A stretch of 64,000 nt of DNA. Source: Candidatus Methylomirabilota bacterium. GTDB lineage: Bacteria; Methylomirabilota; Methylomirabilia; Rokubacteriales; CSP1-6. Both the position numbers and the translations under genes were made by a program. This document shows, piece by piece, positions 25,229 through 64,000 of this stretch (its first letter is position 1; every line of letters starts with the position of its first letter). The notes beneath the pieces were generated by a model, which saw only the letters and a program-made list of their open reading frames with translations, did no database searches and was not told the DNA's origin. The stretch covers positions 3,436 through 67,435 of the forward strand of contig DATFYA010000187.1 in assembly GCA_035315345.1 (NCBI GenBank), written 5' to 3'.

Positions 25229-26380
25229 ATGGACGGGCAGGAACCGACCGGGCCGCCCTCGTTCTTCCGCAAGCCCGCGCCTCCGGGCGGTCCCGCGTCC
25301 CGATCGATAGAGCCCTCCGCCGCGCCACCACCCCCGCCGCCACCGCCGCCCTCGCTCCCGCCGGCGCCCCCGCTCCCGCCGGCGCCCCCGCTCGGCGGCG
25401 AGCCACCCCGGTTCGGGCCGGCGCCCCCCTCCGACTTCGATGGCATTCGCCACCCGGTGTTCCACGGCACCGGAGGCACACTGTTCGGCATCCACGTCGT
25501 CAATACGCTGCTCATCCTCGTCACGCTCGGGATCTACTACTTCTGGGCGAAGACGCGGGTGCGCCGCTACCTGGCCGGGCAGACGGAGATGGAGCTGGAT
25601 CGCTTCGCCTACCACGGCACCGCGAAGGAGCTCCTGCTGGGCACCTTGAAGGCGGTGGTCGTGTTCGGTCTTCCCGTGCTGCTGCTCAATTTCATCCGCG
25701 ACGTCCTGGAGGTGCCCGCCACCCTGAAGGTCATCGCCGGGGTCATCTCCGGCAGCCTCATCTTCGTGTTCTTCCCGGTGGCGGTGGTAGGGGCCCGCCG
25801 GTATCGCCTGAGCCGCATGTCCTGGCGAGGGATCCGCTTCTCGTTCCGCGGCCGGGTCTGGGACATGGTGAAGATCTTCATCCTCGGCACGTTCCTGACC
25901 GGCGTGACCCTCGGGCTGTACTACCCGTTCTTCCTCGTCGATCGCCAGCGCTTCCTCGTCTCGCACTCCTATTTCGGCAGCGAGCGGTTCGGCTTCACCG
26001 GCCGCGGACGGGAGCTGTTCGGGCCGTTCGTGGTCGCGATCCTGCTGACGCTGCCCACGCTCGGGTTGATCTGGGTATGGTACGTGGCGCGCAAGCGCCG
26101 CTTCTTCTGGGATCACACCAGCCTGGGCCCGGCGCGCTTCTCCTGTCACGTGACCGGCGGCGCGCTGCTGGGACTCTGGATGGTCAACGCGATCCTGCTC
26201 GTGGGCACGCTGGGGATCGCGTGGCCGTGGGTGCGCGTGCGCAACATCGACTTCACCTTCCGCTACCTGGCCCTGGTCGGGCCGCTCGATCTCGCCCGCA
26301 TCGAGCAGCAGGCGCAGCAGGCGGGAAGCACCGGCGAGGGCCTGTCCGGCTTCTTCGACTCCGGCTTCGACCTGGCCTGA
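25229..26380 (+). CDS. YjgN/DUF898 family inner-membrane protein with proline-rich N-terminal extension
   Basis: Track ORF. FHGTGGTLFGIHVVNTLLILVTLGIYYFWAKTRVRRY and a second GLYYPFF repeat, typical of DUF898. N-terminal PPPPPPPPPSLPPAPPLPPAPP tract. Confidence 0.75.
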   Translation: MDGQEPTGPPSFFRKPAPPGGPASRSIEPSAAPPPPPPPPPSLPPAPPLPPAPPLGGEPPRFGPAPPSDFDGIRHPVFHGTGGTLFGIHVVNTLLILVTLGIYYFWAKTRVRRYLAGQTEMELDRFAYHGTAKELLLGTLKAVVVFGLPVLLLNFIRDVLEVPATLKVIAGVISGSLIFVFFPVAVVGARRYRLSRMSWRGIRFSFRGRVWDMVKIFILGTFLTGVTLGLYYPFFLVDRQRFLVSHSYFGSERFGFTGRGRELFGPFVVAILLTLPTLGLIWVWYVARKRRFFWDHTSLGPARFSCHVTGGALLGLWMVNAILLVGTLGIAWPWVRVRNIDFTFRYLALVGPLDLARIEQQAQQAGSTGEGLSGFFDSGFDLA

Positions 26381-37691: not shown

Positions 37692-38480
37692 CTAGCGGGG
37701 CAGCCAGTCCCGCAACGGCTTGACGATCGCGCCGGCCTTGACCAGGCCCTCCCGCACCGCCGCGACGATCTTGTCCGAGCCGGGGCTGTCGCCGTGGATG
37801 CAGATCGTCGCGACGTTCGCGTCGATCACCTTGCCGGTGATGGTGCGGACCTTGCCCTCCATGGCCATGCGCACGGCCTGGTCGGCTGCCTTGGCCGGAT
37901 CGGTGATCAGCGCGTCCTTGCCGAGCTTGCGGGTGACCAGCTGGCCGTCGTCGGCATAGACGCGGTCGGCGAAGCCCTCGGCGGCGATGCGCACGCCCGT
38001 CACCTTCCGCGCCTCCGCGTCGTACTTGGTCATGGCCATCGTCATCAGGATGATCTCGGGGTCCAGCTCGAGCACCTGCTCGGCGCTCGCCCGTCCCAAT
38101 GGCAGATTTTCTTCGAACATGTGGTACTGGATGCCGTGCGGCTTCACGTGCTGGATGCGGGTGCCCGCGGCCTGCGCGAAGGCGGCGAGGGCGCCGACCT
38201 GGTAGCGGTGGATGTCCTTCAGCTCGGCGGGGGACACGTCCATGCGGCGCCGTCCGAAGCCCATCAGATCGGGCAACCCCGGGTGCGCCCCCACCGCGAC
38301 GCCGTGCTGGATGGCCAGCTCCACGGTCCGGCGCATGACGTGCGGGTCACCGCCGTGGAAGCCGCAGGCGATGTTGGCCGAGGTGATGTTGGGCATCACC
38401 TCCTCGTCGTGACCGAGGGTCCAGCGGCCGTAGCTCTCTCCCATGTCGCAGTTGATGTCGATGTGGACGGGCTGGCTCAT
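37692..38480 (-). CDS. pxpA: LamB/YcsF family lactam hydrolase (5-oxoprolinase subunit A-like)
   Basis: ATG 38480 (ATGA overlap with the upstream LLM stop) within track ORF 37692..38798. IDINCDMGESYG, NIACGFHGGDP, VKPHG motifs. Confidence 0.88.
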   Translation of the reverse strand: MSQPVHIDINCDMGESYGRWTLGHDEEVMPNITSANIACGFHGGDPHVMRRTVELAIQHGVAVGAHPGLPDLMGFGRRRMDVSPAELKDIHRYQVGALAAFAQAAGTRIQHVKPHGIQYHMFEENLPLGRASAEQVLELDPEIILMTMAMTKYDAEARKVTGVRIAAEGFADRVYADDGQLVTRKLGKDALITDPAKAADQAVRMAMEGKVRTITGKVIDANVATICIHGDSPGSDKIVAAVREGLVKAGAIVKPLRDWLPR

Positions 38481-39412
38481 AGCTTGGGCAAGACCTCCTT
38501 GGCGATTCGCTCGACCTGCTCCGGCTGATACCGGTACGGGATCAGGATAATCCGATGCACGCCGGTCCGCACGTGGGCGCGCAGCTGCTCGATGCAGTCC
38601 GCCACCGAGCCGTGGATCGCGTGATCGATGGTGGATTCGCTCCAGGCCGCGGTGTCCCACTCCGTGGAGAGCCACTTCCGCATGTCGGCGGTGGTGTCTT
38701 CTCGAGATCGGCCCACGTAGATCGCGAGCTGGTTGGTGGCGGTCAGCCGGGCCGGATCCCGTCCGGCCTCGCGCGCGAAGCCCTTCACCTTCTCCCACGA
38801 CGTGGCGAAGCTCTCCGGGGTGTAGAAGTAGGTGAGCCAGCCGTCACCCACGGTGCCGGCCCGCCGTAGCACCGCGTCCACGTAGCCGCCGACCAGCACG
38901 GGCGGGCGAGGGCGCTGCGCGGTGCGCGGCACCATGACCGCCTCGCGCAGGTTGAACTCGTCCACCTTCAGGGTCACGCGATCCTGGGTCCAGAGCCGCG
39001 TCAGGATGTCGAGGTTGCGCTCGAACTGCCGCCCGCGCTGCTTGAAGGGCACGCCGACCGCGTCGAATTCGCGCGCGTACCAGCCCGCGGCCACCCCGAG
39101 GATCAGCCGGCCCCCCGAGATCACGTCGAGGCTGCCCAGGGCCTTGGCCGCCACTACCGGGTTCCGCAGCGGCAGCACCAGCACGCCGGTGCCGAGCTTG
39201 ATCTTCCGGGTACGGGCGGCGACGGCGCCCAGCATCGTGATCGAGTCCACGATGGGAAACGAGGGCTCCACGCCGAGCAGCACGTGGTCCCAGGCCCAGA
39301 GCGACTCGAAGCCGAGCGCTTCGGCGCGCTCCGAGTAGGCGTAGAGGGCCTGGATATCGGGCACCTCGCCGGGTCCCACGAAGTTGCGAATCGCCAGACC
39401 GAAGTCGGTCAT
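38477..39412 (-). CDS. luciferase-like (LLM class) flavin/F420-dependent oxidoreductase
   Basis: Track ORF. FESLWAWDHV...KLGTGVLVLPLRNP...RLILGVAAGW pattern. Confidence 0.85.
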   Translation of the reverse strand: MTDFGLAIRNFVGPGEVPDIQALYAYSERAEALGFESLWAWDHVLLGVEPSFPIVDSITMLGAVAARTRKIKLGTGVLVLPLRNPVVAAKALGSLDVISGGRLILGVAAGWYAREFDAVGVPFKQRGRQFERNLDILTRLWTQDRVTLKVDEFNLREAVMVPRTAQRPRPPVLVGGYVDAVLRRAGTVGDGWLTYFYTPESFATSWEKVKGFAREAGRDPARLTATNQLAIYVGRSREDTTADMRKWLSTEWDTAAWSESTIDHAIHGSVADCIEQLRAHVRTGVHRIILIPYRYQPEQVERIAKEVLPKL

Positions 39413-39465
39413 CGGGTGCGGTCCTTTCAGGGCGTTCCTGGCGGTCGACCGTTTGGTTGTTCAGG

Positions 39466-39696
39466 CTCTTCAGCTGCGGGGGCCCCGAAATGGCCCCCGC
39501 ACTCCCCCCGTCGGCGGACAATCGTTCTTGCGCCCATAGGCCCACTTGGCCGTCCGCACTCCTCCCGTCGGCGGACAATCGTTCTTGCGCCCATAGGCCC
39601 ACCGGGCCGTCCGCACTCCTCCCGTCGGCGGACAATCGTTCTTGCGCCCATAGGCCCACCTGGCCGTCCGCACTCCCCCCGTCGGCGGACAATCGT
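39466..39696. repeat. hairpin plus 57-bp tandem repeat array (3.6 copies) in an operon spacer
   Basis: 9-bp GC hairpin GCGGGGGCC-N7-GGCCCCCGC at 39476-39500. Repeat units lie at 39491-39546 (56 nt), 39547-39603, 39604-39660 and 39661-39696 (partial). Units 2 and 3 differ at a single nucleotide. Confidence 0.9.
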
Positions 39697-39707
39697 GGGG
39701 GGTGAGT

Positions 39708-40469
39708 TCATCCGATGAATTGGCGGTTGGGGTCGAGCATGCGGAGGATGGAGAGCTCCTGGTCGGTGGGGGGCTTGGTGGTGGTGAGGTCGGGGCTCAC
39801 GAGGACGTCGAATCCGGTGTTGTCGCGCACCTGCTCCAGACTGACGCCCGGGTGCAGGGCAAGCAACTGCACGCGGCGGCTCTTCGCCTCGAAGCCGAAG
39901 ATCCCGAGGGTGGTGATCAGCCGCGAGACGCCGCCGAACAGGAGGCCGTGGCGGGCGCGGGCATCGCCGCCGTCCAGGTAGCCCGGGCTCGTGACGAAGT
40001 CCACCCGCTCGGTGAACCGGCGCTTCTCGTGCACGGTGAGGATCATCACTTCGCGACAGAGCGAGATGATGTCGTTGGCGCCGCCGCTCCCGGGCAGCCG
40101 CACCTTGGGGCGCGCGTAGCCGCCGATCGCGCTGGTGTTGAGGTTGCCGTGCCGATCGATCTGAGCGCCGCCGATGAAGCCCACGTCGAAGAAGCCGCGC
40201 TGGGCGAGCAGGAACGCGTCGCTGATGCCGGGCAGCATCTGGGCGCGGTAGGCCGCGCGCATCTCGTTGGTCGAGATCGGCAGCTCGCCCGGCTTCCACA
40301 TCGGCCCGATCACGCCGCCCTCCACCATCATGGTGAGGCCGGGGGCGTGGGTGCGCTGGGCCAGCACGGAGGCCATCATCGGCGCGCCGACTCCGGTGAA
40401 CACGGTGGAGTTGTCGCGCAGCTCGCGGGCCCCCATCACGGCGAGCAGCTCGTTGGCGGTGACGCTCAT
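39708..40469 (-). CDS. CoA-transferase subunit B (glutaconate/3-oxoacid CoA-transferase family)
   Basis: ATG 40469 (ATGA overlap) within track ORF 39708..40664. FIGGAQIDRHGNLN and LPGSGGANDI motifs. Confidence 0.85.
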   Translation of the reverse strand: MSVTANELLAVMGARELRDNSTVFTGVGAPMMASVLAQRTHAPGLTMMVEGGVIGPMWKPGELPISTNEMRAAYRAQMLPGISDAFLLAQRGFFDVGFIGGAQIDRHGNLNTSAIGGYARPKVRLPGSGGANDIISLCREVMILTVHEKRRFTERVDFVTSPGYLDGGDARARHGLLFGGVSRLITTLGIFGFEAKSRRVQLLALHPGVSLEQVRDNTGFDVLVSPDLTTTKPPTDQELSILRMLDPNRQFIG

Positions 40470-41428
40470 GTGGTGAGCATCCGGGCGCGCGCGGCCGCGT
40501 CGGCCATGCGGACCTCGCCGAAAAGGGCCAGATAGTCGGCGTGACCGCGGGGCGCATACACGTAGCGCTCCAGGTAGTCGGCCACGCCGGCGGCGCCGCG
40601 CTGCTGGATGCTCTCGACGTAGGAGGTGAAGTGGTCGGGCTCGGCGTCGTAGGCGCCGTAGCACTCGTGCGGGTAGGAGCCGTAGGGCACGTGGGCGAGC
40701 GCGTCCACCATGAAGCCCGGGATCACGGTGCGATCCGGATGCAGGCGGATCTCGTCCTCCGAGACGATCTCCTCGGCGGTCACCAGGACGGTCGACGCGG
40801 CGCGGGCGATGTCGGCGTCCATGTGCGGGTAGCCGTCGATCTGGCAGTTCCCGAGCCGGTCGGCGCGCTGCACATGCAGCAGGGCGACGTCAGGGAACAG
40901 GGCGGGCACCGCGTGCAGCGTGCGGCCGGTGTACGGGCATTCCACCGTTTTCGAGCCGCCCACCCCCATCAGATCCGAGCCCAGCATGGTGAGCGACGGC
41001 AGGAACGGCACGCCCATGGCGGCGGCTCGATAGCGGAGACCCAGGCCCAGGTGGCTCCATTCCTCGAACGCGATGCGCCCGGACTCCACATACTCGCGCT
41101 GGATGCGCGAGAGGCCCCACGGGAGCCCGATGCCCATCCAAGAGGTGACCAGCTTGTCCACCGCGCCCGCGACCACGCCCCACTCGCCCTCGTAGCACAT
41201 GAGGTTGCGGGAGAAGGCGAGCCGCCGGGGCCGGCGGCGCAGCAGGGCCCACACCAGCGCCAGCGGGGTGCGTGAGTAGAGGCAGCCGCCGATGGCGAGA
41301 TGGTCGCCGTCCTTGACCAGCGCCACCGCGTCCTCGAGGGGGCCGAGCTTCGGGCCGGCCGACTTGGCCTTGTCCTCGATCCGTCGCCGCGCGGCGTAGA
41401 AATCGTACTCGCGGGGGGCGATGGTCAC
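40466..41428 (-). CDS. CoA-transferase subunit A (glutaconate CoA-transferase-like)
   Basis: GTG 41428 (GTGA overlap) within track ORF 40466..42460. VKDGDHLAIGG..., ALLHVQRADRLGNCQIDG pattern. Confidence 0.85.
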   Translation of the reverse strand: MTIAPREYDFYAARRRIEDKAKSAGPKLGPLEDAVALVKDGDHLAIGGCLYSRTPLALVWALLRRRPRRLAFSRNLMCYEGEWGVVAGAVDKLVTSWMGIGLPWGLSRIQREYVESGRIAFEEWSHLGLGLRYRAAAMGVPFLPSLTMLGSDLMGVGGSKTVECPYTGRTLHAVPALFPDVALLHVQRADRLGNCQIDGYPHMDADIARAASTVLVTAEEIVSEDEIRLHPDRTVIPGFMVDALAHVPYGSYPHECYGAYDAEPDHFTSYVESIQQRGAAGVADYLERYVYAPRGHADYLALFGEVRMADAAARARMLTT

Positions 41429-42483
41429 GCGAGGATCTCCCACGTCTTCTGATAGCGGTCCAGCTGCTGGACGGTGTGGGCGTCCAGGGGATGCTCGCGC
41501 TCGGGGATCTCGACGTGCTTGGTCTCGCCGCACAGCGGAGTGGTGAAGTACCGCTGGCCAGTGTCGTTGATGACGGTCAGCACCGAGGGCAGGCCGGGAT
41601 GACGGCGCGCCAGCTTCAACGCGGCGGCCACGTTGCAGCCGCTCGAGATGCCGCAGAAGATGCCTTCCTCGCGGGCCAGCCGTCGCGCGATGTCCACGCT
41701 CTCGTCCGTGGTGGTGGTGATGATCCCGGTCAGCAAGGACACGTCGAGGTTGCGCGGCACGAACCCGTCCCCGATGCCCTCGATGCCGTGATGACCCCAC
41801 GCGCGCCGGGAGAGCAATGCGCACTCCGCGGGTTCCACCGCGTAGAGCTTGACCTCGGGGTCGCGGCTGCGCAGATAGCGGCCGACGCCGGTCAGGAGGC
41901 CGCCCGAGCCCTGCGAGTCCACGAAGGCGCCGATGCGGCCCCCCGACTGCTCCCAGATCTCGGGGCCGGTGCTGAGGATGTGGGCCTCGACGTTGTCCGG
42001 GTTGTCGAACTGCCCGGGCACCCAGTACCGGCCGGGCTCGGAGTCGCGAATCTGCCGCAGACGCTCCAGTGAGAGATCCACGTCGCTCTCGCCGCCCGGC
42101 GTGAAGACGAGCTCGGCGCCGTAGGCGCGCATGATCTTCTTGCGCTCGTCGCTCATGCCCTCCGGCATCACGATCGTGCACGGATAGCCCTTGACCGCCG
42201 AGACCCAGGAGCAGGCGATGCCCGCGTTGCCGGTCGAGCACTCCAGCACGCGCACGCCCGGCTTCAGATCGCCGCGGGCCTCCGCCCGCTCGAACATGTG
42301 CAGATAGATCCGGTCCTTGAGGCTGCCCGTCGCGCCGTACCACTCGACCTTCACGTAGATCGCCGGCGCGACGTCGCGGGTGACGCGGTTGAGCCGCACC
42401 AGCGGCGTGCGTCCCACCGCGGCGGCGATGGAGGGCAGGGCCTCGCGGTAACGGTTCCACTGCGTGCCGGTCTTCGGATCCAT
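41425..42483 (-). CDS. cysteine synthase/cystathionine beta-synthase family PLP-dependent enzyme
   Basis: ATG 42483 within track ORF 41425..42612. GRTPLVRL, GATGSLKDRI (PLP lysine), STGNAGIA, GSGGLLTGVG motifs. About 40-aa C-terminal extension. Confidence 0.85.
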   Translation of the reverse strand: MDPKTGTQWNRYREALPSIAAAVGRTPLVRLNRVTRDVAPAIYVKVEWYGATGSLKDRIYLHMFERAEARGDLKPGVRVLECSTGNAGIACSWVSAVKGYPCTIVMPEGMSDERKKIMRAYGAELVFTPGGESDVDLSLERLRQIRDSEPGRYWVPGQFDNPDNVEAHILSTGPEIWEQSGGRIGAFVDSQGSGGLLTGVGRYLRSRDPEVKLYAVEPAECALLSRRAWGHHGIEGIGDGFVPRNLDVSLLTGIITTTTDESVDIARRLAREEGIFCGISSGCNVAAALKLARRHPGLPSVLTVINDTGQRYFTTPLCGETKHVEIPEREHPLDAHTVQQLDRYQKTWEILA

Positions 42484-42488
42484 GGTCG

Positions 42489-43040
42489 CTAGCCTCGCGC
42501 GGTCGGTGTCGCCACCCCGACGCCCCGCAGGAACTTGGTGAGTCGGTGCCGGCCGGAGGTGAGCGGCTCGTAGCGCGGCGGGTTGTCGGGACCGCAGCAG
42601 CCGGGCAGACACTCGATCACCGCGTCGTAGTTCGGCTGGAAAAAGGAGGGGATCGAGAGGCGCCGGTTGCCTCGTGCCGTCTCGCGGGGAGGGTTCACCA
42701 CGCGGTGCATGGTCGAGATCCAGCGGTCGTTGGTGAGATCGGCGGCGGTGGCGTCACCGCGGCTGTAGGAGAGGTTCTCGTCGCCCAGCGCGATGTAGCC
42801 GCGGCTCTGCTCGGGCGCCGGGCGCGCCACCGCCTGCTTGGGCGGGACGGGCAGGTCGAAGAAGGCGCGCGATGTCTCGAGCATGCGGGCCACGAGGCGG
42901 TCCGGCACGCGGTGGCCGACGATCGTGAAGAAGCCGATGTCGGTGCAGGCGGTGTCGATCGCGCGCGCCACCGCCGCGCGCTTTTCCGGCGCACCCTCCC
43001 CGAACGCGGTCAGGTCGATCACCGGCACGGTGGTGAGCAT
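42489..43040 (-). pseudogene. 2OG-Fe(II) oxygenase remnant with large in-frame internal deletion
   Basis: ATG 43040 within track ORF 42489..43142. The N-terminal DIOX_N-like part (VPVIDL...IGFFTIVGHRVP...AFFDLP) joins directly to the distal LTNDRWISTMHRV...RLSIPSFFQP segment. The core with the HxD iron-binding motif is absent (183 aa versus about 320 expected). Confidence 0.6.
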
Positions 43041-48370: not shown

Positions 48371-48400
48371 CGACACGAACGAACGAACCCGCATGAACCA

Positions 48401-48460
48401 CGAACGAATGTCCGCCGATTGGGGGAGTGCGGGGGCCATGTCTGGGCCCCCGCAGCTGAA
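48401..48460. repeat. dispersed single copy (opposite orientation) of the 39.4-kb hairpin/repeat element
   Basis: The reverse complement reads TTCAGCTGCGGGGGCCCAGACATGGCCCCCGCACTCCCCCAATCGGCGGACATTCG. It aligns with 39469-39526 with a handful of substitutions and retains the 9-bp hairpin (48429-37 / 48445-53). Confidence 0.7.
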
Positions 48461-48475
48461 CAGGGGTCACGGTTG

Positions 48476-50827
48476 ATGGGCGCAAAGTATTTTGGTGCAT
48501 CGGTCAAGCGCAAGGAAGACCCGCGCTACCTGCGCGGCGAAGGCCGCTACGTGGACGACATCAAGCTGCCCGGCATGCTCCACGCCGCCTTCGTGCGCAG
48601 CCCGTACGCGCACGCCCGCATCACCGCGATCCGCCCCGAGGCGGCCCGACGGCTGCCCGGCGTCGCCCACGTGTTCACGTTCGCGGACCTGGAGCGCTGG
48701 ATGAAGCCGCTGCCGCTCTTCGGCGCGATCCCCCCGGGCCTGGCCGCGCGCGTGCAGGTGACGATGAGACAGGTCGGTCAGCTCGCCATGTGCCGGGACG
48801 AGGTGCGGCACGTGGGCGAGATCGTGGCCATGGTGCTGGCGTCGAGCCGCGCGGTCGCCGAGGACGGCTGCGAGCGGGTGGAGGTGGACTACGAGCCGCT
48901 CCCGGTGCTGGCCGACGTGATCACGGCCGGCGAGCCCGGGGCGCCCGTGCTCTATCCCGAGTGGGGCGACAACGTGGCGCTCTCATTCAAGACCGGCTTC
49001 GGCGACGTCGAGGCGGCGCTGCGCCAGGCCGATGCCCGGGTGCGGGAGCGCTTCGTCATCCCGCGCTACGTGGGCATGCCCATCGAGACGCGCGGGGTGG
49101 TCGCGCAATGGGATCAGCGCGACGGCAGCCTCACCACCTGGAACGGCACCCAGGTCGTGCACTTCGTCCAGCAGGGTCTGGTGGCCGCGCTCGGGCTGCC
49201 GCCGAGCCGCGTTCGCGTCATCGCCCCCGACGTCGGGGGCGGCTTCGGCACCAAGGCCAACGGCTATCCGGAGGACCTGCTCATCCCCGCCGCGGCGATC
49301 GCGTCACGCCGGCCGGTGAAGTGGACCGAGGATCGGCGCGAGCACATGATGGGCTCGGCGCACGCGCGCGCGCAGGTGCACGACATCGAGATCGCGGCCC
49401 GCCGTGACGGCACCATGCTGGCGGTGCGCGACCGCATCTGGGTCGATCTGGGGGCCTACAACTCCTGGGGCATCGTGCTGCCGTACAACACGGTCGCCCA
49501 TCTGCTCGGCCCGCATCGCGTCCCCAATCTGGACGTGGAGTGCCGCGGGATCGTGACCACCAAGACGCCCAACGCGCCGTATCGGGGCGCGGGCCGTCCC
49601 GAGACCGTCTTCGCGATGGACCGCATCGTGGACTGCCTGGCCCGCGAGCTGCGCCTGGACCCGGCCGAGCTGCGCCGGCGCAACTACCTTGCCCAGGCCG
49701 ACATGCCCTACGAGCTGAACATCCCGTACCGCGACGGCAATCCGCTCGTGTACGACAGCGGCGACTGCAAGGCCTCGCTCGAGGACGCGCTTCGTGCGGT
49801 CGGCTACGAGGCCCTGCGTGCCGAGCAGGCCCGGCTCCGCGAGCGGGGCATCTACCGCGGCATCGGTCTCTCCGGCTACGTGGAGGGCACCGCGATCGGG
49901 CCCTACGAGGGCGCGACCGTGAAGCTCGACGCCTCGGGTCATGCCACCGTGGCCACCGGCGCGTGCAGCCAGGGCCAGGGCCACGAGACCTCGTTCGCGC
50001 AGATCGCGGCGGACGCGCTGGGCATCCCGCTCGAGTGGGTGACCGTGGTGGGCGGCGACACCGCGGCCATTCCGTTCGGGGTGGGCACGTTTGCCTCGCG
50101 CAGCGCGGTGAACGCGGGCAGCTCGATCCACGAGGCGTCGGGCCGCGTGCGCGAGAAGATCGTCACCGCGGCGGCCGCCCTGCTCGAGGCCGCGCCCGCC
50201 GACATCGAGGTCGCCGACGGTGTGGTCTCGGTGCGCGGGGCGCCGGGATCGGCCACGCCACTGGCCGGGGTGATCCGGGCCGCGATCCCGACCTTCGCGA
50301 AGCCCGGTGTGGCCTCGCCCGATTTCGAGGCGACGGTCTATCACCATCAGCCCACCGTGACCTACACGAACGCGGTCCACGTGGCGGTGGTGGACGTGGA
50401 TCCGGGCACCGGCGCGGTGAAGCTCCTCCGTTACCTGGTCGCCCACGACTGCGGCAAGCTCATCAATCCGGTGATCGTCGAGGGCCAGATCCACGGGGGC
50501 GTCGCCCAGGGCATCGGCGGCGGGCTGCTCGAGGAGATGGTCTACGACGAGCAGGCCCAGCTCCTCACCGGCACGTTCATGGACTACCTGGTGCCGACCG
50601 CGATGGAAGTGCCCGCCATCGAGACGGTCCACCTCGAGTACCCGTCGCCCCGCAATCCGCTCGGCATCAAGGGCATCGGCGAGGGCGGCGCCATCTCGCC
50701 GCCGGCCGCCATCGCCAACGCGGTGGAGGACGCGCTGTCGCCCTGGGGCGTGCGGGTGACGCGCACGCCGCTGGGCCCGTCGGTCGTGCTCGGGCTGCTG
50801 GAGCGCGCCGGGGCGAAGCCGGCATGA
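48476..50827 (+). CDS. xanthine dehydrogenase/CO dehydrogenase family molybdopterin-binding large subunit
   Basis: ATG 48476 within track ORF 48419..50827. MGAKYFGASVKRKEDPRYLRGEGRYVDD N-terminus and a PYRGAGRPE active-site loop (not the form I CODH AYxCSFR signature). Confidence 0.88.
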   Translation: MGAKYFGASVKRKEDPRYLRGEGRYVDDIKLPGMLHAAFVRSPYAHARITAIRPEAARRLPGVAHVFTFADLERWMKPLPLFGAIPPGLAARVQVTMRQVGQLAMCRDEVRHVGEIVAMVLASSRAVAEDGCERVEVDYEPLPVLADVITAGEPGAPVLYPEWGDNVALSFKTGFGDVEAALRQADARVRERFVIPRYVGMPIETRGVVAQWDQRDGSLTTWNGTQVVHFVQQGLVAALGLPPSRVRVIAPDVGGGFGTKANGYPEDLLIPAAAIASRRPVKWTEDRREHMMGSAHARAQVHDIEIAARRDGTMLAVRDRIWVDLGAYNSWGIVLPYNTVAHLLGPHRVPNLDVECRGIVTTKTPNAPYRGAGRPETVFAMDRIVDCLARELRLDPAELRRRNYLAQADMPYELNIPYRDGNPLVYDSGDCKASLEDALRAVGYEALRAEQARLRERGIYRGIGLSGYVEGTAIGPYEGATVKLDASGHATVATGACSQGQGHETSFAQIAADALGIPLEWVTVVGGDTAAIPFGVGTFASRSAVNAGSSIHEASGRVREKIVTAAAALLEAAPADIEVADGVVSVRGAPGSATPLAGVIRAAIPTFAKPGVASPDFEATVYHHQPTVTYTNAVHVAVVDVDPGTGAVKLLRYLVAHDCGKLINPVIVEGQIHGGVAQGIGGGLLEEMVYDEQAQLLTGTFMDYLVPTAMEVPAIETVHLEYPSPRNPLGIKGIGEGGAISPPAAIANAVEDALSPWGVRVTRTPLGPSVVLGLLERAGAKPA

Positions 50828-62013: not shown

Positions 62014-62706
62014 ATGGCTATCCCGATCGAGTCCTCACCTCCGCCAGGGTGGGATCGTGAAGGGATCGACGGCCTGCTCGGCCTGTTCCCGCCGGGTCGG
62101 CTCAGCGAGATCGTCGGCCCCCGATCCTCCGGCGGCAGCAGCCTGCTCCTGGCCCTCATTGCCCGGATCACGACTCGCGGGCAGGTGGCCTACGTGGACG
62201 GGATGGATGCGCTCGATCCCGCCTCCGCCGCGACGGCCGGCGTCGATCTCTCCGCGCTGCTCTGGGTGAAGTGTGCAGGCCGTCTCCGCACGGCGCTGAG
62301 CGCCGCCGATCTGCTCGCCCGTTGTCCCGGCTTCTCGCTGATCGTCCTCGACCTCGACGACCTCGGGCCCGTGCCTTTCGCCGCTCAGATCCGGCTGCAG
62401 CGGGCGGTGGAAGACCGCGACGCGGCATTGGTCGTCCATACTGCACGTCATCGCGAGGGCAGCCCCGCCTCGCTGGTCGTGACGACTCGGCGTCTGGCTC
62501 CCCGCTGGAGGGGACTGCGTCCGCTCACCCGTCTCGGTGGGCTTCGCTCCGAGGTCTCCATCGCCCGCTCCCGCCTCCACCCCTCCTCCCTCTCCCCCCT
62601 GGGGAGAGGGCAGGGTGAGGGGGCTGAGGGTGAGGGGGCTGAGGGTGAGGGGGCTGGAGGTGAGAGAGGTGAGGGGCAGACCTGGGCCCTCGACTGGACC
62701 CTATGA
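62014..62706 (+). CDS. imuA: translesion-synthesis-associated RecA/SulA-like protein ImuA
   Basis: Track ORF. GRLSEIVGPRSSGGSSLLLALIA degenerate P-loop region, followed directly by imuB (ATGA overlap). The C-terminal tail GRGQGEGAEGEGAEGEGAGGERGEG is repeat-derived. Confidence 0.78.
   Translation: MAIPIESSPPPGWDREGIDGLLGLFPPGRLSEIVGPRSSGGSSLLLALIARITTRGQVAYVDGMDALDPASAATAGVDLSALLWVKCAGRLRTALSAADLLARCPGFSLIVLDLDDLGPVPFAAQIRLQRAVEDRDAALVVHTARHREGSPASLVVTTRRLAPRWRGLRPLTRLGGLRSEVSIARSRLHPSSLSPLGRGQGEGAEGEGAEGEGAGGERGEGQTWALDWTL
62588..62680. repeat. REP-like hairpin plus 15-bp tandem repeats embedded in the imuA 3' coding region
   Basis: CCCTCTCCCC-CCT-GGGGAGAGGG at 62588-62610. This is followed by GGGTGAGGGGGCTGA repeated at 62613, 62628 and 62643, then degenerate copies. 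Confidence 0.8.
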
Positions 62707-64000
62707 CCCGCATCGCCTGTCTGCTCGCCGCGACCGATGCCGAGCCCGATGGGTCCGTTCACCGCATGCTGCTCCAGGTCGCGCTGTCCCATTCGCCCCG
62801 CGTGGAAGACGGCGGCATCGGGCGTGTGTATCTCGACGCGTCGGGATTGCATGGCCTGTTCGGTGACGAGCCCCGGCTCGCCGCACGTCTCCGCGACATG
62901 ACCGCGGCCGCCGGGGTGACGGCACGTGTGGGCATCGCGGGGAGCCGGCTCGCGGCCCTGGCCGCCGCACGCCTGGGGCCCGGCGCCGCCGTCGTCGATC
63001 CGGATGGCGACGCGGCCTACCTGGCCGTCGCGCCGCTCTCCCTGCTCGAGCTGTCGAATGAGCTGTCGGCCCGGCTATCCCGCTGGGGTCTCCGCACGCT
63101 CGGGGAGCTGGCCGCCCTGCCGACCGCGGGGCTGTTCGAGCGGCTGGGAGGAGAAGGGGTGCGGCTGCAGCGGTTGGTGCGCGGCGACGACCCGCGCCCG
63201 CTGGTCTCCTGGAAGCCGGCGCTGCTCTTCGAGGAATCGGTCCAGTGCGAGTGGGGCATGGAGACGCTCCCGCCGGCGGTCGAGCGCCTGGGCGAGCTGG
63301 CCGCGCGAGTGTGCGCGCGCCTCGGCGAGCGCGGGCTCGCGGCCGACGGCTTCGAATGGGCCTGCCGCCTCGACGGCGGCCACCTCCACGAGGGCGCGCT
63401 CGCTCCCGCGGTGCCCATGACCGATGGCGCCGCCGTCGCGGCATTGCTCCGCCTCGCGCTCGAGGCGCGTCCGCCCCGCGGTATCGTCCGGGGCCTCACG
63501 CTTCGTGCCCGTCCCGCGCGGATCACGGCGATGCAGGAATCGCTCACCGATCGCTCCCGCCCCAGTCCGCGCCTCCTCGCGGCCACCCTGAATCGTTTGG
63601 TGGGCCTGGTGGGCGCGGACAGCATAGGCGCTCCGGCGCTGCTCGACAGCCATCGCCCCGACGCCGTGGGCCTGGGCGCCTATGCTCCTCCTCCTTTCTC
63701 TCTCTCTTCCCTCCGGGACGCGGGCGCGGCTTCTCCCTCTCCCCTCCGGGCCGCCGACGCGCCTTCTCGCTCTCCCCTCCGGGACGCGGGCGCGCCTCCT
63801 CCCTCTCCCCTCCGGGGAGAGGGTAGGGTGAGGGGTATCGGCGCCCTCGCCCTGCGCCGTCTCCGTCCGCCGGCTCCGGCCGCGGTCACGCTCACCTCGG
63901 GCCGTCCCGTGGCCTTGCGCTCGAGCCGGCTCAGCGGACGCATCGTGGCCGGTGCCGGCCCGTGGCGCTCCTCGGGCGAGTGGTGGAGCAAGCGGCCGTG
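62703..64000 (+). CDS. imuB: Y-family polymerase-like protein ImuB (3' end outside window)
   Basis: Not in the ORF track because there is no stop in the window. My frame-0 translation from ATG 62703 reads MTRIACLLA...RVYLDASGLHGLFG...LSRWGLRTLGELAALP...GPWRSSGEWWS, the typical ImuB pattern. Confidence 0.85.
   Translation, partial: MTRIACLLAATDAEPDGSVHRMLLQVALSHSPRVEDGGIGRVYLDASGLHGLFGDEPRLAARLRDMTAAAGVTARVGIAGSRLAALAAARLGPGAAVVDPDGDAAYLAVAPLSLLELSNELSARLSRWGLRTLGELAALPTAGLFERLGGEGVRLQRLVRGDDPRPLVSWKPALLFEESVQCEWGMETLPPAVERLGELAARVCARLGERGLAADGFEWACRLDGGHLHEGALAPAVPMTDGAAVAALLRLALEARPPRGIVRGLTLRARPARITAMQESLTDRSRPSPRLLAATLNRLVGLVGADSIGAPALLDSHRPDAVGLGAYAPPPFSLSSLRDAGAASPSPLRAADAPSRSPLRDAGAPPPSPLRGEGRVRGIGALALRRLRPPAPAAVTLTSGRPVALRSSRLSGRIVAGAGPWRSSGEWWSKRP
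63696..63835. repeat. 33-bp tandem repeats (about 3.5 copies) ending in a REP-like hairpin, embedded in-frame in imuB
   Basis: Units at 63696-63730, 63731-63763 and 63764-63796. The terminal unit contains CCCTCTCCCC-TCC-GGGGAGAGGG-TAGGGTGAGGGG (63801-63835). Confidence 0.8.

Follow-up and report, generated by a model that had tools for sequence, protein, structure and literature searches.

Mycobacterial interspersed repetitive units (MIRUs) were reportedly described by Supply et al. in 1997. A translational-coupling logic has been proposed for MIRU insertions at operon junctions (PMC12548453), and a comparable logic of tolerance by translation has been proposed for in-frame Rickettsia palindromic elements (RPEs; PMC10969869). 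Pneumococcal BOX elements are modular, with the layout boxA-boxB(n)-boxC (PMC3049150). Here we analyse a 64,000-nt stretch of a Candidatus Methylomirabilota bacterium (GenBank assembly GCA_035315345.1, contig DATFYA010000187.1, positions 3,436 to 67,435; hereafter the window), in which a 57-nt tandem array separates a CoA-transferase gene from a gene for an LLM-class oxidoreductase. The array is probably a slippage-derived variable number tandem repeat (VNTR) that translation tolerates. Its repeat unit comprises the head module and a further 28 nt from a small, non-autonomous palindromic element inserted at the operon junction. The element would then represent a new family of the RPE, MIRU, and BOX kind.

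A 57-nt array that varies between strains

The array lies in a 295-nt spacer (39413-39707) of a minus-strand operon. Tandem Repeats Finder places it at 39497-39696 with a period of 57 nt, 3.5 copies, 96% matches, no indels, and a score of 372, by far the highest of any tandem array in the window. A repeat search of the array returns three in-register 86-nt copies, offset by 57 nt and 97-100% identical. It also returns an inverted repeat whose 10-nt arms (39475-39484 and 39492-39501) pair perfectly around a loop of 7 nt. Neither half of the 57-nt unit occurs in any of 100 shuffles. A previous interpretation made from the letters alone (the sequence-only reading) had described the near-perfect 57-bp array in its 295-nt spacer, the adjoining 9-bp GC hairpin with a 7-nt loop, and a one-nucleotide difference between units 2 and 3. 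All three are confirmed.

That reading had divided the array into four units of 56, 57, 57, and 36 nt. The array itself stands, but it is better read on the minus (coding) strand as three 57-nt units, each composed of a head and a 28-nt spacer, followed by a fourth head that merges into the hairpin. Each unit consists of ACGAT, the head TGTCCGCCGACGGG[G/A]GGAGTGCGG, and the 28-nt spacer ACGGCCnGGTGGGCCTATGGGCGCAAGA. Unit 1 (39640-39696) carries the head TGTCCGCCGACGGGGGGAGTGCGG and the spacer ACGGCCAGGTGGGCCTATGGGCGCAAGA. Unit 2 (39583-39639) carries the head variant GGGAGGAG and a spacer with a GGCCC-GGT-GGGCC mini-hairpin, and unit 3 (39526-39582) differs from unit 2 at a single base. The corresponding GGCCC-ACC-GGGCC dyad had been assigned to every unit; it is perfect in the middle unit and not in the others. 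The terminal head (39497-39525) ends in GCGG, which opens the 5' arm of the hairpin, and is part of an nhmmer match at 39525-39443 (E = 7.6e-21). The hairpin (39476-39500), GCGGGGGCC-N7-GGCCCCCGC with the loop ATTTCGG and a stem of 9 bp, forms the core of the family described below and hardly varies within it. It is followed by the purine-rich tail AGCTGAAGAGCCTGAACAACCAAACGGTCGACCGCC (39443-39475), a variant of the commonest family tail, which closes with a repeat of the 5' leader (ACGG-NN-G.CCGC). The ribosome-binding region of the LLM gene (39413-39442, minus strand) comes next, with AAGGA at 39426-39422.

The 311-aa LLM protein is found, identical, in 51 blocks of the assembly collection. 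We compared the spacers of 10 of those blocks (L090-L099), from at least 10 other samples, with that of the window. The spacer is 181 nt long in four contigs (L090, L092, L093, and L099), corresponding to one full unit, and 238 nt long in six (L091 and L094-L098), corresponding to two; the 295 nt of the window correspond to three. The alleles carry allele-specific single-nucleotide polymorphisms (SNPs) within the units and one at the left junction, and identical alleles recur across unrelated samples and assemblers. The 57-nt array is thus a VNTR, and strains differ by whole 57-nt units. The array had been called recent or dynamic, in agreement with this variation among strains that share an identical LLM protein. 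Units would be gained and lost by replication slippage or by unequal recombination between the direct repeats. The VNTR supports the suggestion of a recombination or slippage hotspot as a candidate role.

Tandem repeats shorter than the k-mer or read length are easily mis-assembled, and most of the comparison contigs are short-read assemblies. An assembly artefact or a meaningless chance repeat is nevertheless hardly credible, and we regard it as effectively refuted. The locus has been assembled independently in at least 11 samples by different pipelines, and the differences consist of whole 57-nt units and allele-specific SNPs. Simple repeat collapse is unlikely, because the alleles have their own SNPs and recur in identical form across samples and assemblers. 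The family of the unit has hundreds of independent occurrences, with no chance match in the shuffles. The sequence-only reading had named an assembly artefact or a lack of conservation as what would overturn it, and the 10 further assemblies instead contain one or two units with SNPs of their own.

The element has been inserted at the CoA-transferase/LLM junction, and relatives of the operon without the insertion exist. In three relatives (L100-L102), the LLM gene products of which are 85-92% identical, the junction spacers are 7, 38, and 84 nt long and of unrelated sequence, without a trace of the element. Because the closest operon relatives have such short, unrelated spacers, the element at this junction is an insertion. 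The metagenome-assembled genome (MAG) of L100 carries family members at other loci (L020, L039, L057, and L074). On the coding strand, GATGA is present on both sides of the insertion (39409-39413 and 39708-39712), and excision of everything between the two copies leaves an ATGA stop/start overlap, as at the other operon junctions. The GATGA flanks are a single case and serve only as a lead. The same bases belong to an inverted repeat (39409-39418 and 39709-39718; 10 nt, 90%), and in the predicted RNA fold its pairing closes the spacer.

The operon had been described as otherwise tightly coupled, and every junction except the array spacer indeed overlaps by 4 nt. All members are on the minus strand: a DIOX_N gene (42489-43040), a PALP gene (41425-42483), a first CoA_trans gene (40466-41428), the gene for a 253-aa CoA-transferase subunit directly upstream of the array (39708-40469; Pfam CoA_trans; stop TGA at 39710-39708), the Bac_luciferase gene for the F420-dependent LLM-class oxidoreductase of 311 aa (38477-39412), and a LamB_YcsF gene (37692-38480) that overlaps the LLM gene by 4 nt. 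Genes were called with a GC3/GC2 log-odds caller (GC content at third and second codon positions), and the calls are the same as the public JGI/ENA calls at the locus.

Several candidate functions of the spacer were rejected. An intrinsic terminator would need a T-run after the hairpin, and a scan of the spacer finds no such site on the minus strand; on this coding strand, the predictions include neither a sigma-70-like promoter nor a terminator with a U-tract. A CRISPR array, which the sequence-only reading had also dismissed, is excluded, since all units share the same 28-nt inter-head segment and the flanking genes are metabolic. A type III toxin-antitoxin system with a ToxI-like repeat RNA is excluded, since the downstream gene encodes an F420-dependent LLM oxidoreductase and not an endoribonuclease toxin. 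A riboswitch or regulon leader does not fit the functional diversity of the genes downstream of family members. Rfam 15 gives no match in the window at the gathering score, and at E <= 10 the spacer has just chance-level matches (E > 0.3).

Three other tandem repeats are present in the window, at 63699-63816 (33 nt x 3.6; Tandem Repeats Finder score 180), 62612-62675 (15 nt x 4.3), and 25331-25393 (18 nt x 3.5). None resembles the 57-nt unit in sequence.

A dispersed family in transcribed DNA

The array had been treated as a stand-alone feature. It is instead a single module, amplified locally, of a repeat family that is dispersed across the lineage. A family member starts with a leader (ACGG-NN) and a head (GTCCGCCGAnnGGGGGAGTGCGG), continues with a GC hairpin of 9 bp and a purine-rich tail, and closes with the leader sequence again, so that its two ends are direct repeats of each other (ACGG-NN-GTCCGC at both ends). 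It is about 73-95 nt long, and the array unit corresponds to its 5' head module. The consensus of an alignment of 83 copies is (A/G)ACGG-NN-GTCCGCCGAcTGGGGGAGTGCGGGGGCCATtTCtGGGCCCCCGCAGATGAAGAGCyTGAAGAAGTAAACGG-NN-GTCCGC.

An exact scan with the head pattern over one genome per species (the genome sample) returns 89 stretches. Seven of them, in other taxa, are isolated and lack the hairpin. The remaining stretches combine head, hairpin, and tail, and come from 20-odd MAGs labelled Methylomirabilota or Rokubacteria and from some otherwise labelled bins; the canonical stretches all lie in loci of about 70% GC. An independent, hairpin-anchored contig scan of metagenomes (the metagenome sample) returns at least 119 stretches. 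Among the metagenome matches listed, the invariant part is TGGGGGAGTGC with the hairpin and GCA, and several variants exist both of the tail and of the 5' portion of the head. The plasmid and phage collections contain no match to the element. The family exists and is dispersed through the Methylomirabilota/Rokubacteria lineage, with members at many loci of MAGs and of soil metagenomes. No description of repeats in this phylum was found in the searchable literature, and the family is apparently undescribed.

Six MAG records within L001-L076 (DATIWG01, DASQAL01, DATLFG01, DATHSW01, DATJIR01, and DATMMH01) hold several canonical copies each. Their titles are Nitrosotalea, Acidoferrum, Limnocylindria, Deferrimicrobiaceae, Verrucomicrobiia, and Dormiibacterota, and their loci have about 70% GC and Rokubacteria-like synteny; the titles look wrong, or the bins look contaminated. 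The family is modular. One sub-family has a second hairpin in its tail, GGGGCGGATCCG-N-GTCCGCCC (L007, L023, L053, L110, L160, and L209), and others lack the GTCCGC part of the head (e.g., ..GGCGCGAGAATGGGGGAGTGC).

The window holds two family sites in 64 kb. The second is a single-head member on the plus strand (feature, 48393-48476; element, 48404-48465; hairpin, 48429-48453), situated between a LivF-like ABC ATPase gene and a CoxL-like gene. It has the same hairpin, a related tail, and the same orientation to its downstream gene as the array. The sequence-only reading had listed a diverged copy at 48401-48460; the copy is real, but it is not degenerate, being the canonical single form of the family. 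The orthologous sites in L005, L015, L055, L058, and L065 have 1, 5, 3, 2, and 1 heads, respectively, and the window has 1. The array-specific 28-nt spacer (39526-39696) holds ATGGGCGCAAGA, which matches the start of the CoxL-like gene (ATGGGCGCAAAG, 48476-48487) at 11 of 12 positions. This likeness could be a flank captured during copying, or chance.

Tandem copies are frequent in the family. Where whole elements are repeated, the period is 73-74 or 87 nt. Arrays of heads alone, ahead of a terminal hairpin, are common; their periods are 33, 36, 39, 42, 48, and 57 nt and, more rarely, 37, 38, 40, 41, and 47 nt.

We counted the spacers of 60-600 nt in the loci fetched. Those with the element core comprise 124 co-directional, 10 convergent, and 1 divergent spacer, and those without the element comprise 221, 21, and 80, respectively (Fisher p = 1e-12). 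The family is thus excluded from divergent promoter regions. Between co-directional genes, sense copies outnumber antisense copies by 49 to 22 in the genome sample (27 to 11 when orthologous sites are collapsed) and by 54 to 25 among the matches listed of the metagenome sample. An orientation set by replication is rejected, because nearby copies point opposite ways: the two copies of the window, 9 kb apart, are oppositely oriented, each following its own genes, and other loci hold opposite-orientation copies 0.1-0.85 kb apart. By hand count, upstream genes extend in frame into the element at 17 of 38 sites, which is not significant.

The element also occurs in frame inside genes, although both copies of the window are intergenic. 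In MutL, it lies in the linker in sense (L076, 3902-3960; ..SADWGSAGAISGPPH..) and in antisense (L006, 4347-4410; ..GGPEMAPALPQSAD..). In an ABC exporter, it lies between the membrane and ATPase domains, in sense in L064 (4514-4574), L068 (1707-1766), L125, L155, and L201 and in antisense in L024 (3761-3818). In an ABC-F ATPase, it precedes the C-terminal domain in L013 (3884-4121, 2-3 copies), L022 (6655-6736), L136, and L204. All in-gene copies sit in inter-domain linkers, with the Pfam domain order intact on both sides. The family is therefore found almost exclusively in DNA that is transcribed into mRNA: co-directional spacers, 3' ends, and in-frame protein linkers.

A GC palindrome of this kind raises the question of REP or BIME elements, in which a domesticated Y1 (RAYT) transposase would cut and copy the hairpin in the form of single-stranded DNA; the array would then be BIME-like and the conserved core a requirement of the transposase. 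In support, the palindrome is 25 nt long, dispersed, and mostly extragenic, it is excluded from divergent promoter regions (1 divergent spacer), its core is near-invariant across species, and head-to-head inverted doublets exist in L139 (652-807) and L160 (8859-8971). However, the E. coli RayT protein matches no six-frame open reading frame (ORF) in about 0.8 Mb of element-bearing loci (phmmer, E <= 10), and a scan of the sampled loci for the HUH..Y motif is negative. The stem has no GTAG/CGTC tag; in the 83-copy alignment it is flanked by GGAGT (5') and A[G/T]nTG (3'). Copies are mostly single or in direct tandem, with no inverted pair closer than 800 nt in the genome sample, and the inverted doublets are just 2 among the at least 119 metagenome loci listed. 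In-frame copies in genes and a density of 2 sites per 64 kb are likewise atypical of REPs. We therefore judge a REP/BIME origin to be improbable. The doublets of L160 and L139 lie in ftsH-folP and ureA-ureB spacers, with no transposase-like gene nearby.

Possible translation through the element and conservation of its core

The sequence-only reading had found no ORF with a convincing start or context in the spacer. This does not hold. A 94-codon ORF (39427-39711, minus strand) spans every unit as well as the hairpin and the tail. It opens with an ATG (39711-39709) that shares bases with the CoA-transferase stop (ggATGA); among the glycine codons of the window genes, GGA is the rarest (73 of 1850). 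Its stop TGA (39429-39427) lies 14 nt ahead of the ATG of the LLM gene and abuts the AAGGA Shine-Dalgarno sequence. The 57-nt period equals 19 codons, and the ORF is intact in 11 of 11 alleles, at 56, 75, or 94 codons. Thus, an ATGA-coupled ORF crosses every array allele. At the 48.4-kb copy, a 27-codon ORF starts 22 nt past the stop of the upstream gene, and its own stop, TGA, overlaps the ATG of the CoxL-like gene (TGATG).

To extend the comparison to the family, a bridging ORF was defined by a start -4 to +15 nt from the stop of the upstream gene and an end no more than 8 nt away from the start of the downstream gene. Such ORFs are present at 11 of 41 sense sites in the genome sample and at 11 of 42 in the metagenome sample (among the matches listed). 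In element-free spacers of the two samples they number 8 of 99 and 13 of 106, and shuffles give 7-10%. The pooled difference (22/83 versus 21/205) has p = 0.0009. In addition, 19 of 24 head-only arrays have a period divisible by 3 (p = 5e-6).

These observations fit the reading favoured here, a head-module VNTR at an operon junction that translation tolerates. Because its period equals 19 codons, the array could be translated through and would so be tolerated. Ribosomes ending at the CoA-transferase stop would re-initiate at the overlapping ATG and read through the spacer, opening the hairpins on the way, and would leave the mRNA at a distance of 14 nt from the LLM start. Such read-through would keep the downstream genes translationally coupled. 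The GC hairpin may be the part recognised by the element's own propagation or by a host factor.

A number of observations weigh against this explanation. Transcription of the spacer and translation of the bridging ORF are predicted from sequence only. The ORF has a GC3 of 0.60, compared with about 0.92 for genes, and the SNPs of its alleles are non-synonymous, so the array peptide itself is not selected. The ORF ends 14 nt short of the LLM start, with no overlap, and it reads the head in a frame other than that of the in-gene sense copies. Of the sense sites, just about 26% have a bridging ORF under the strict definition. Most of the divisible-by-3 signal comes from the 36- and 42-nt periods, which recur and may have one structural cause, and among distinct period values 6 of 11 are divisible by 3 (p = 0.12). 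Short-read assemblies can collapse tandem repeats, though the allele-specific SNPs argue otherwise here. The loci sampled contain no transposase or other mobilising gene, and the copies have no clear terminal inverted repeats or target duplications. Finally, the extreme conservation of the core is not expected of a purely selfish, decaying insertion, and a host function or a homogenising process may dominate.

That conservation was measured at orthologous sites of different species-level MAGs. Identity is 97.5% for the 14 stem bases outside the search pattern, 83% for the hairpin loop, and 65% for the tail (ungapped), compared with 73% for four-fold degenerate sites of the flanking genes. Conservation of the core thus greatly exceeds that of neutral sites. 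Within the ABC exporter gene, the 12 core codons agree at third positions in 10-12 of 12, and the rest of the gene gives 0.67-0.91; the linker around the element is full of indels. Covariation is uninformative on the hairpin structure, because the stem never varies. Conservation of this degree suggests that the nucleotide sequence of the core is under selection or is actively homogenised.

One possible basis is a host-selected cis-acting RNA or DNA signal. The invariant core of 34-45 nt would act in mRNA, for example as a barrier to 3'-exonucleases, a processing site, a terminator or attenuator without a U-tract, or a site for a Rokubacterial RNA- or DNA-binding protein, and the number of heads would tune the downstream gene. 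Besides conservation well above neutral at orthologous sites, even at synonymous in-gene positions, the restriction to transcribed DNA and the 2:1 sense bias, replicated in two samples, are as such a signal would require. Head number varies at conserved sites, from 1 to 5 at the CoxL-like site and from 1 to 3 at the LLM site. The predicted sense RNA is more structured than shuffles: the fold of the minus-strand spacer transcript, which the sequence-only reading had named among its checks, has z = -2.15, and that of the antisense strand z = -0.52. An mRNA-element role, also raised by that reading, agrees with the restriction of the family to transcribed DNA and is a candidate, as is the protein-binding array that it had listed too. 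On the other hand, one third of the operon copies are antisense, copies occur in coding linkers, and the downstream genes are diverse. The stem shows no covariation (it never varies), there is no U-tract and no Rfam match, and close relatives lack the element at the CoA-transferase/LLM junction. Taken together, a cis-acting signal seems unlikely as the main explanation.

A bolder form also has only a slim chance of being right. It holds that the 34-45-nt core (TGGGGGAGTGC-GGGGGCC-loop-GGCCCCC-GCA) is no decaying selfish DNA but a nucleic-acid signal, actively maintained in an uncultured phylum and required in transcribed/translated RNA. A conserved protein of Rokubacteria, or else the machinery of translation or decay, would read it. 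The 57-nt VNTR and other head arrays would then be heritable, fast-mutating 'rheostats' of operon expression. Alternatively within this form, a new mechanism of homing or gene conversion would keep the core identical.

The element might also be selected for a peptide, NTG-SADWGSAGA[I/M]SGPPQ[M/L]KSLKK-stop, as a micro-protein, an upstream ORF, or a linker peptide. The variability of the commonest tail is triplet-periodic (1.69 / 0.38 / 1.46 by codon position in the in-gene frame; permutation p = 0.004), and the loop varies mainly at third positions. The in-frame TAA or TAG is mostly kept in spacer copies and is GAA in the ABC-F in-gene copies, all three (3/3) sense in-gene hosts share this frame, and gene callers annotate hypothetical proteins of 29-83 aa over elements. 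Yet the core is also conserved at synonymous positions, indicating that the constraint is on nucleotides. Antisense in-gene copies encode another peptide (GGPEMAPALPQSAD), 1-nt indels in the tail shift the frame, the array of the window is in another frame and its peptide varies freely, and no Shine-Dalgarno sequence is evident ahead of the NTG. A mobile peptide module or small ORF is accordingly very unlikely.

A search with the conserved peptide of the element returns just small hypothetical ORFs and no larger host proteins. Public 'hypothetical proteins' of 29-83 aa (P0121-P0156) are the element in one frame (..WGSAGA[I/M]SGPPQ[M/L]KSLK..), and element ORFs are a likely source of spurious small-protein families in soil metagenomes.

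Comparison with described interspersed repeats

Rokubacteria/Methylomirabilota are abundant uncultured soil bacteria with large genomes. The family found in them unites three traits that tend to be treated apart: MIRU-like operon VNTRs, RPE-like in-frame residence in essential proteins (MutL, ABC-F, and the ABC exporter), and a core that is near-identical between species even at synonymous sites. It raises the question of what holds the core invariant, and it is a case in which to examine how a small mobile DNA can reside in mRNAs and leave translational coupling intact. For strain typing in metagenomes, the 57-nt VNTR and its sister arrays can serve as markers as they stand, and arrays of the element are a known trap for short-read assembly and gene calling.

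Among the systems compared, a miniature inverted-repeat transposable element (MITE) is rejected, since the ends of the element are direct, not inverted, repeats and the flanking 5-nt GATGA of the window insertion is a single case. REP/BIME and REPIN-RAYT systems (PMC3116915, PMC3733652) share with the family a GC-rich extragenic palindrome, promoter avoidance, long-term conservation of the repeat, and clusters. They differ in that no RAYT is near any sampled copy, the GTAG/CGTC tag is missing, and the repeats are in direct tandem and not in inverted doublets; the copy density of the element is lower, and copies stand in frame within genes.

BOX elements resemble the family in being modular and dispersed, with one internal or 5' module in variable tandem number, and in their transcribed intergenic location and stable RNA structures. 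The modules are different, however, and unrelated in sequence; BOX elements are AT-rich and belong to Firmicutes, and in-frame insertion in genes is no hallmark of theirs.

The relation to RPEs is one of analogy. They are small palindromic repeats found both in spacers and in frame in tolerant regions of unrelated housekeeping proteins (PMC10969869), as is the element described here. The host lineages are unrelated (Methylomirabilota, not Rickettsia), the sequences are presumably unrelated too, and the element is shorter (about 73-95 nt versus about 100-150 nt). In addition, it forms tandem arrays of a sub-module, and its core is almost invariant across species.

The array resembles MIRUs as these are described: units of tens of nucleotides in direct tandem in operon spacers, with strain-variable copy number and apparently mobile insertions at junctions. 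With 57 nt x 3.5, the array has units in the 40-100 bp range in direct tandem in an operon spacer. MIRUs have an ORF tied to the flanking genes by an ATGA overlap, with little harm to expression, and the array may be coupled in a similar way. Its ATGA overlap, however, is upstream only; at the other side, 14 nt separate the stop of the ORF from the following start codon. The host phylum also differs, here with a 70%-GC Methylomirabilota genome; the array unit is a module of a larger element with a strong GC hairpin, and the family occurs inside genes as well. The array is an ordinary VNTR of a new family of a known sort of small interspersed repeat.

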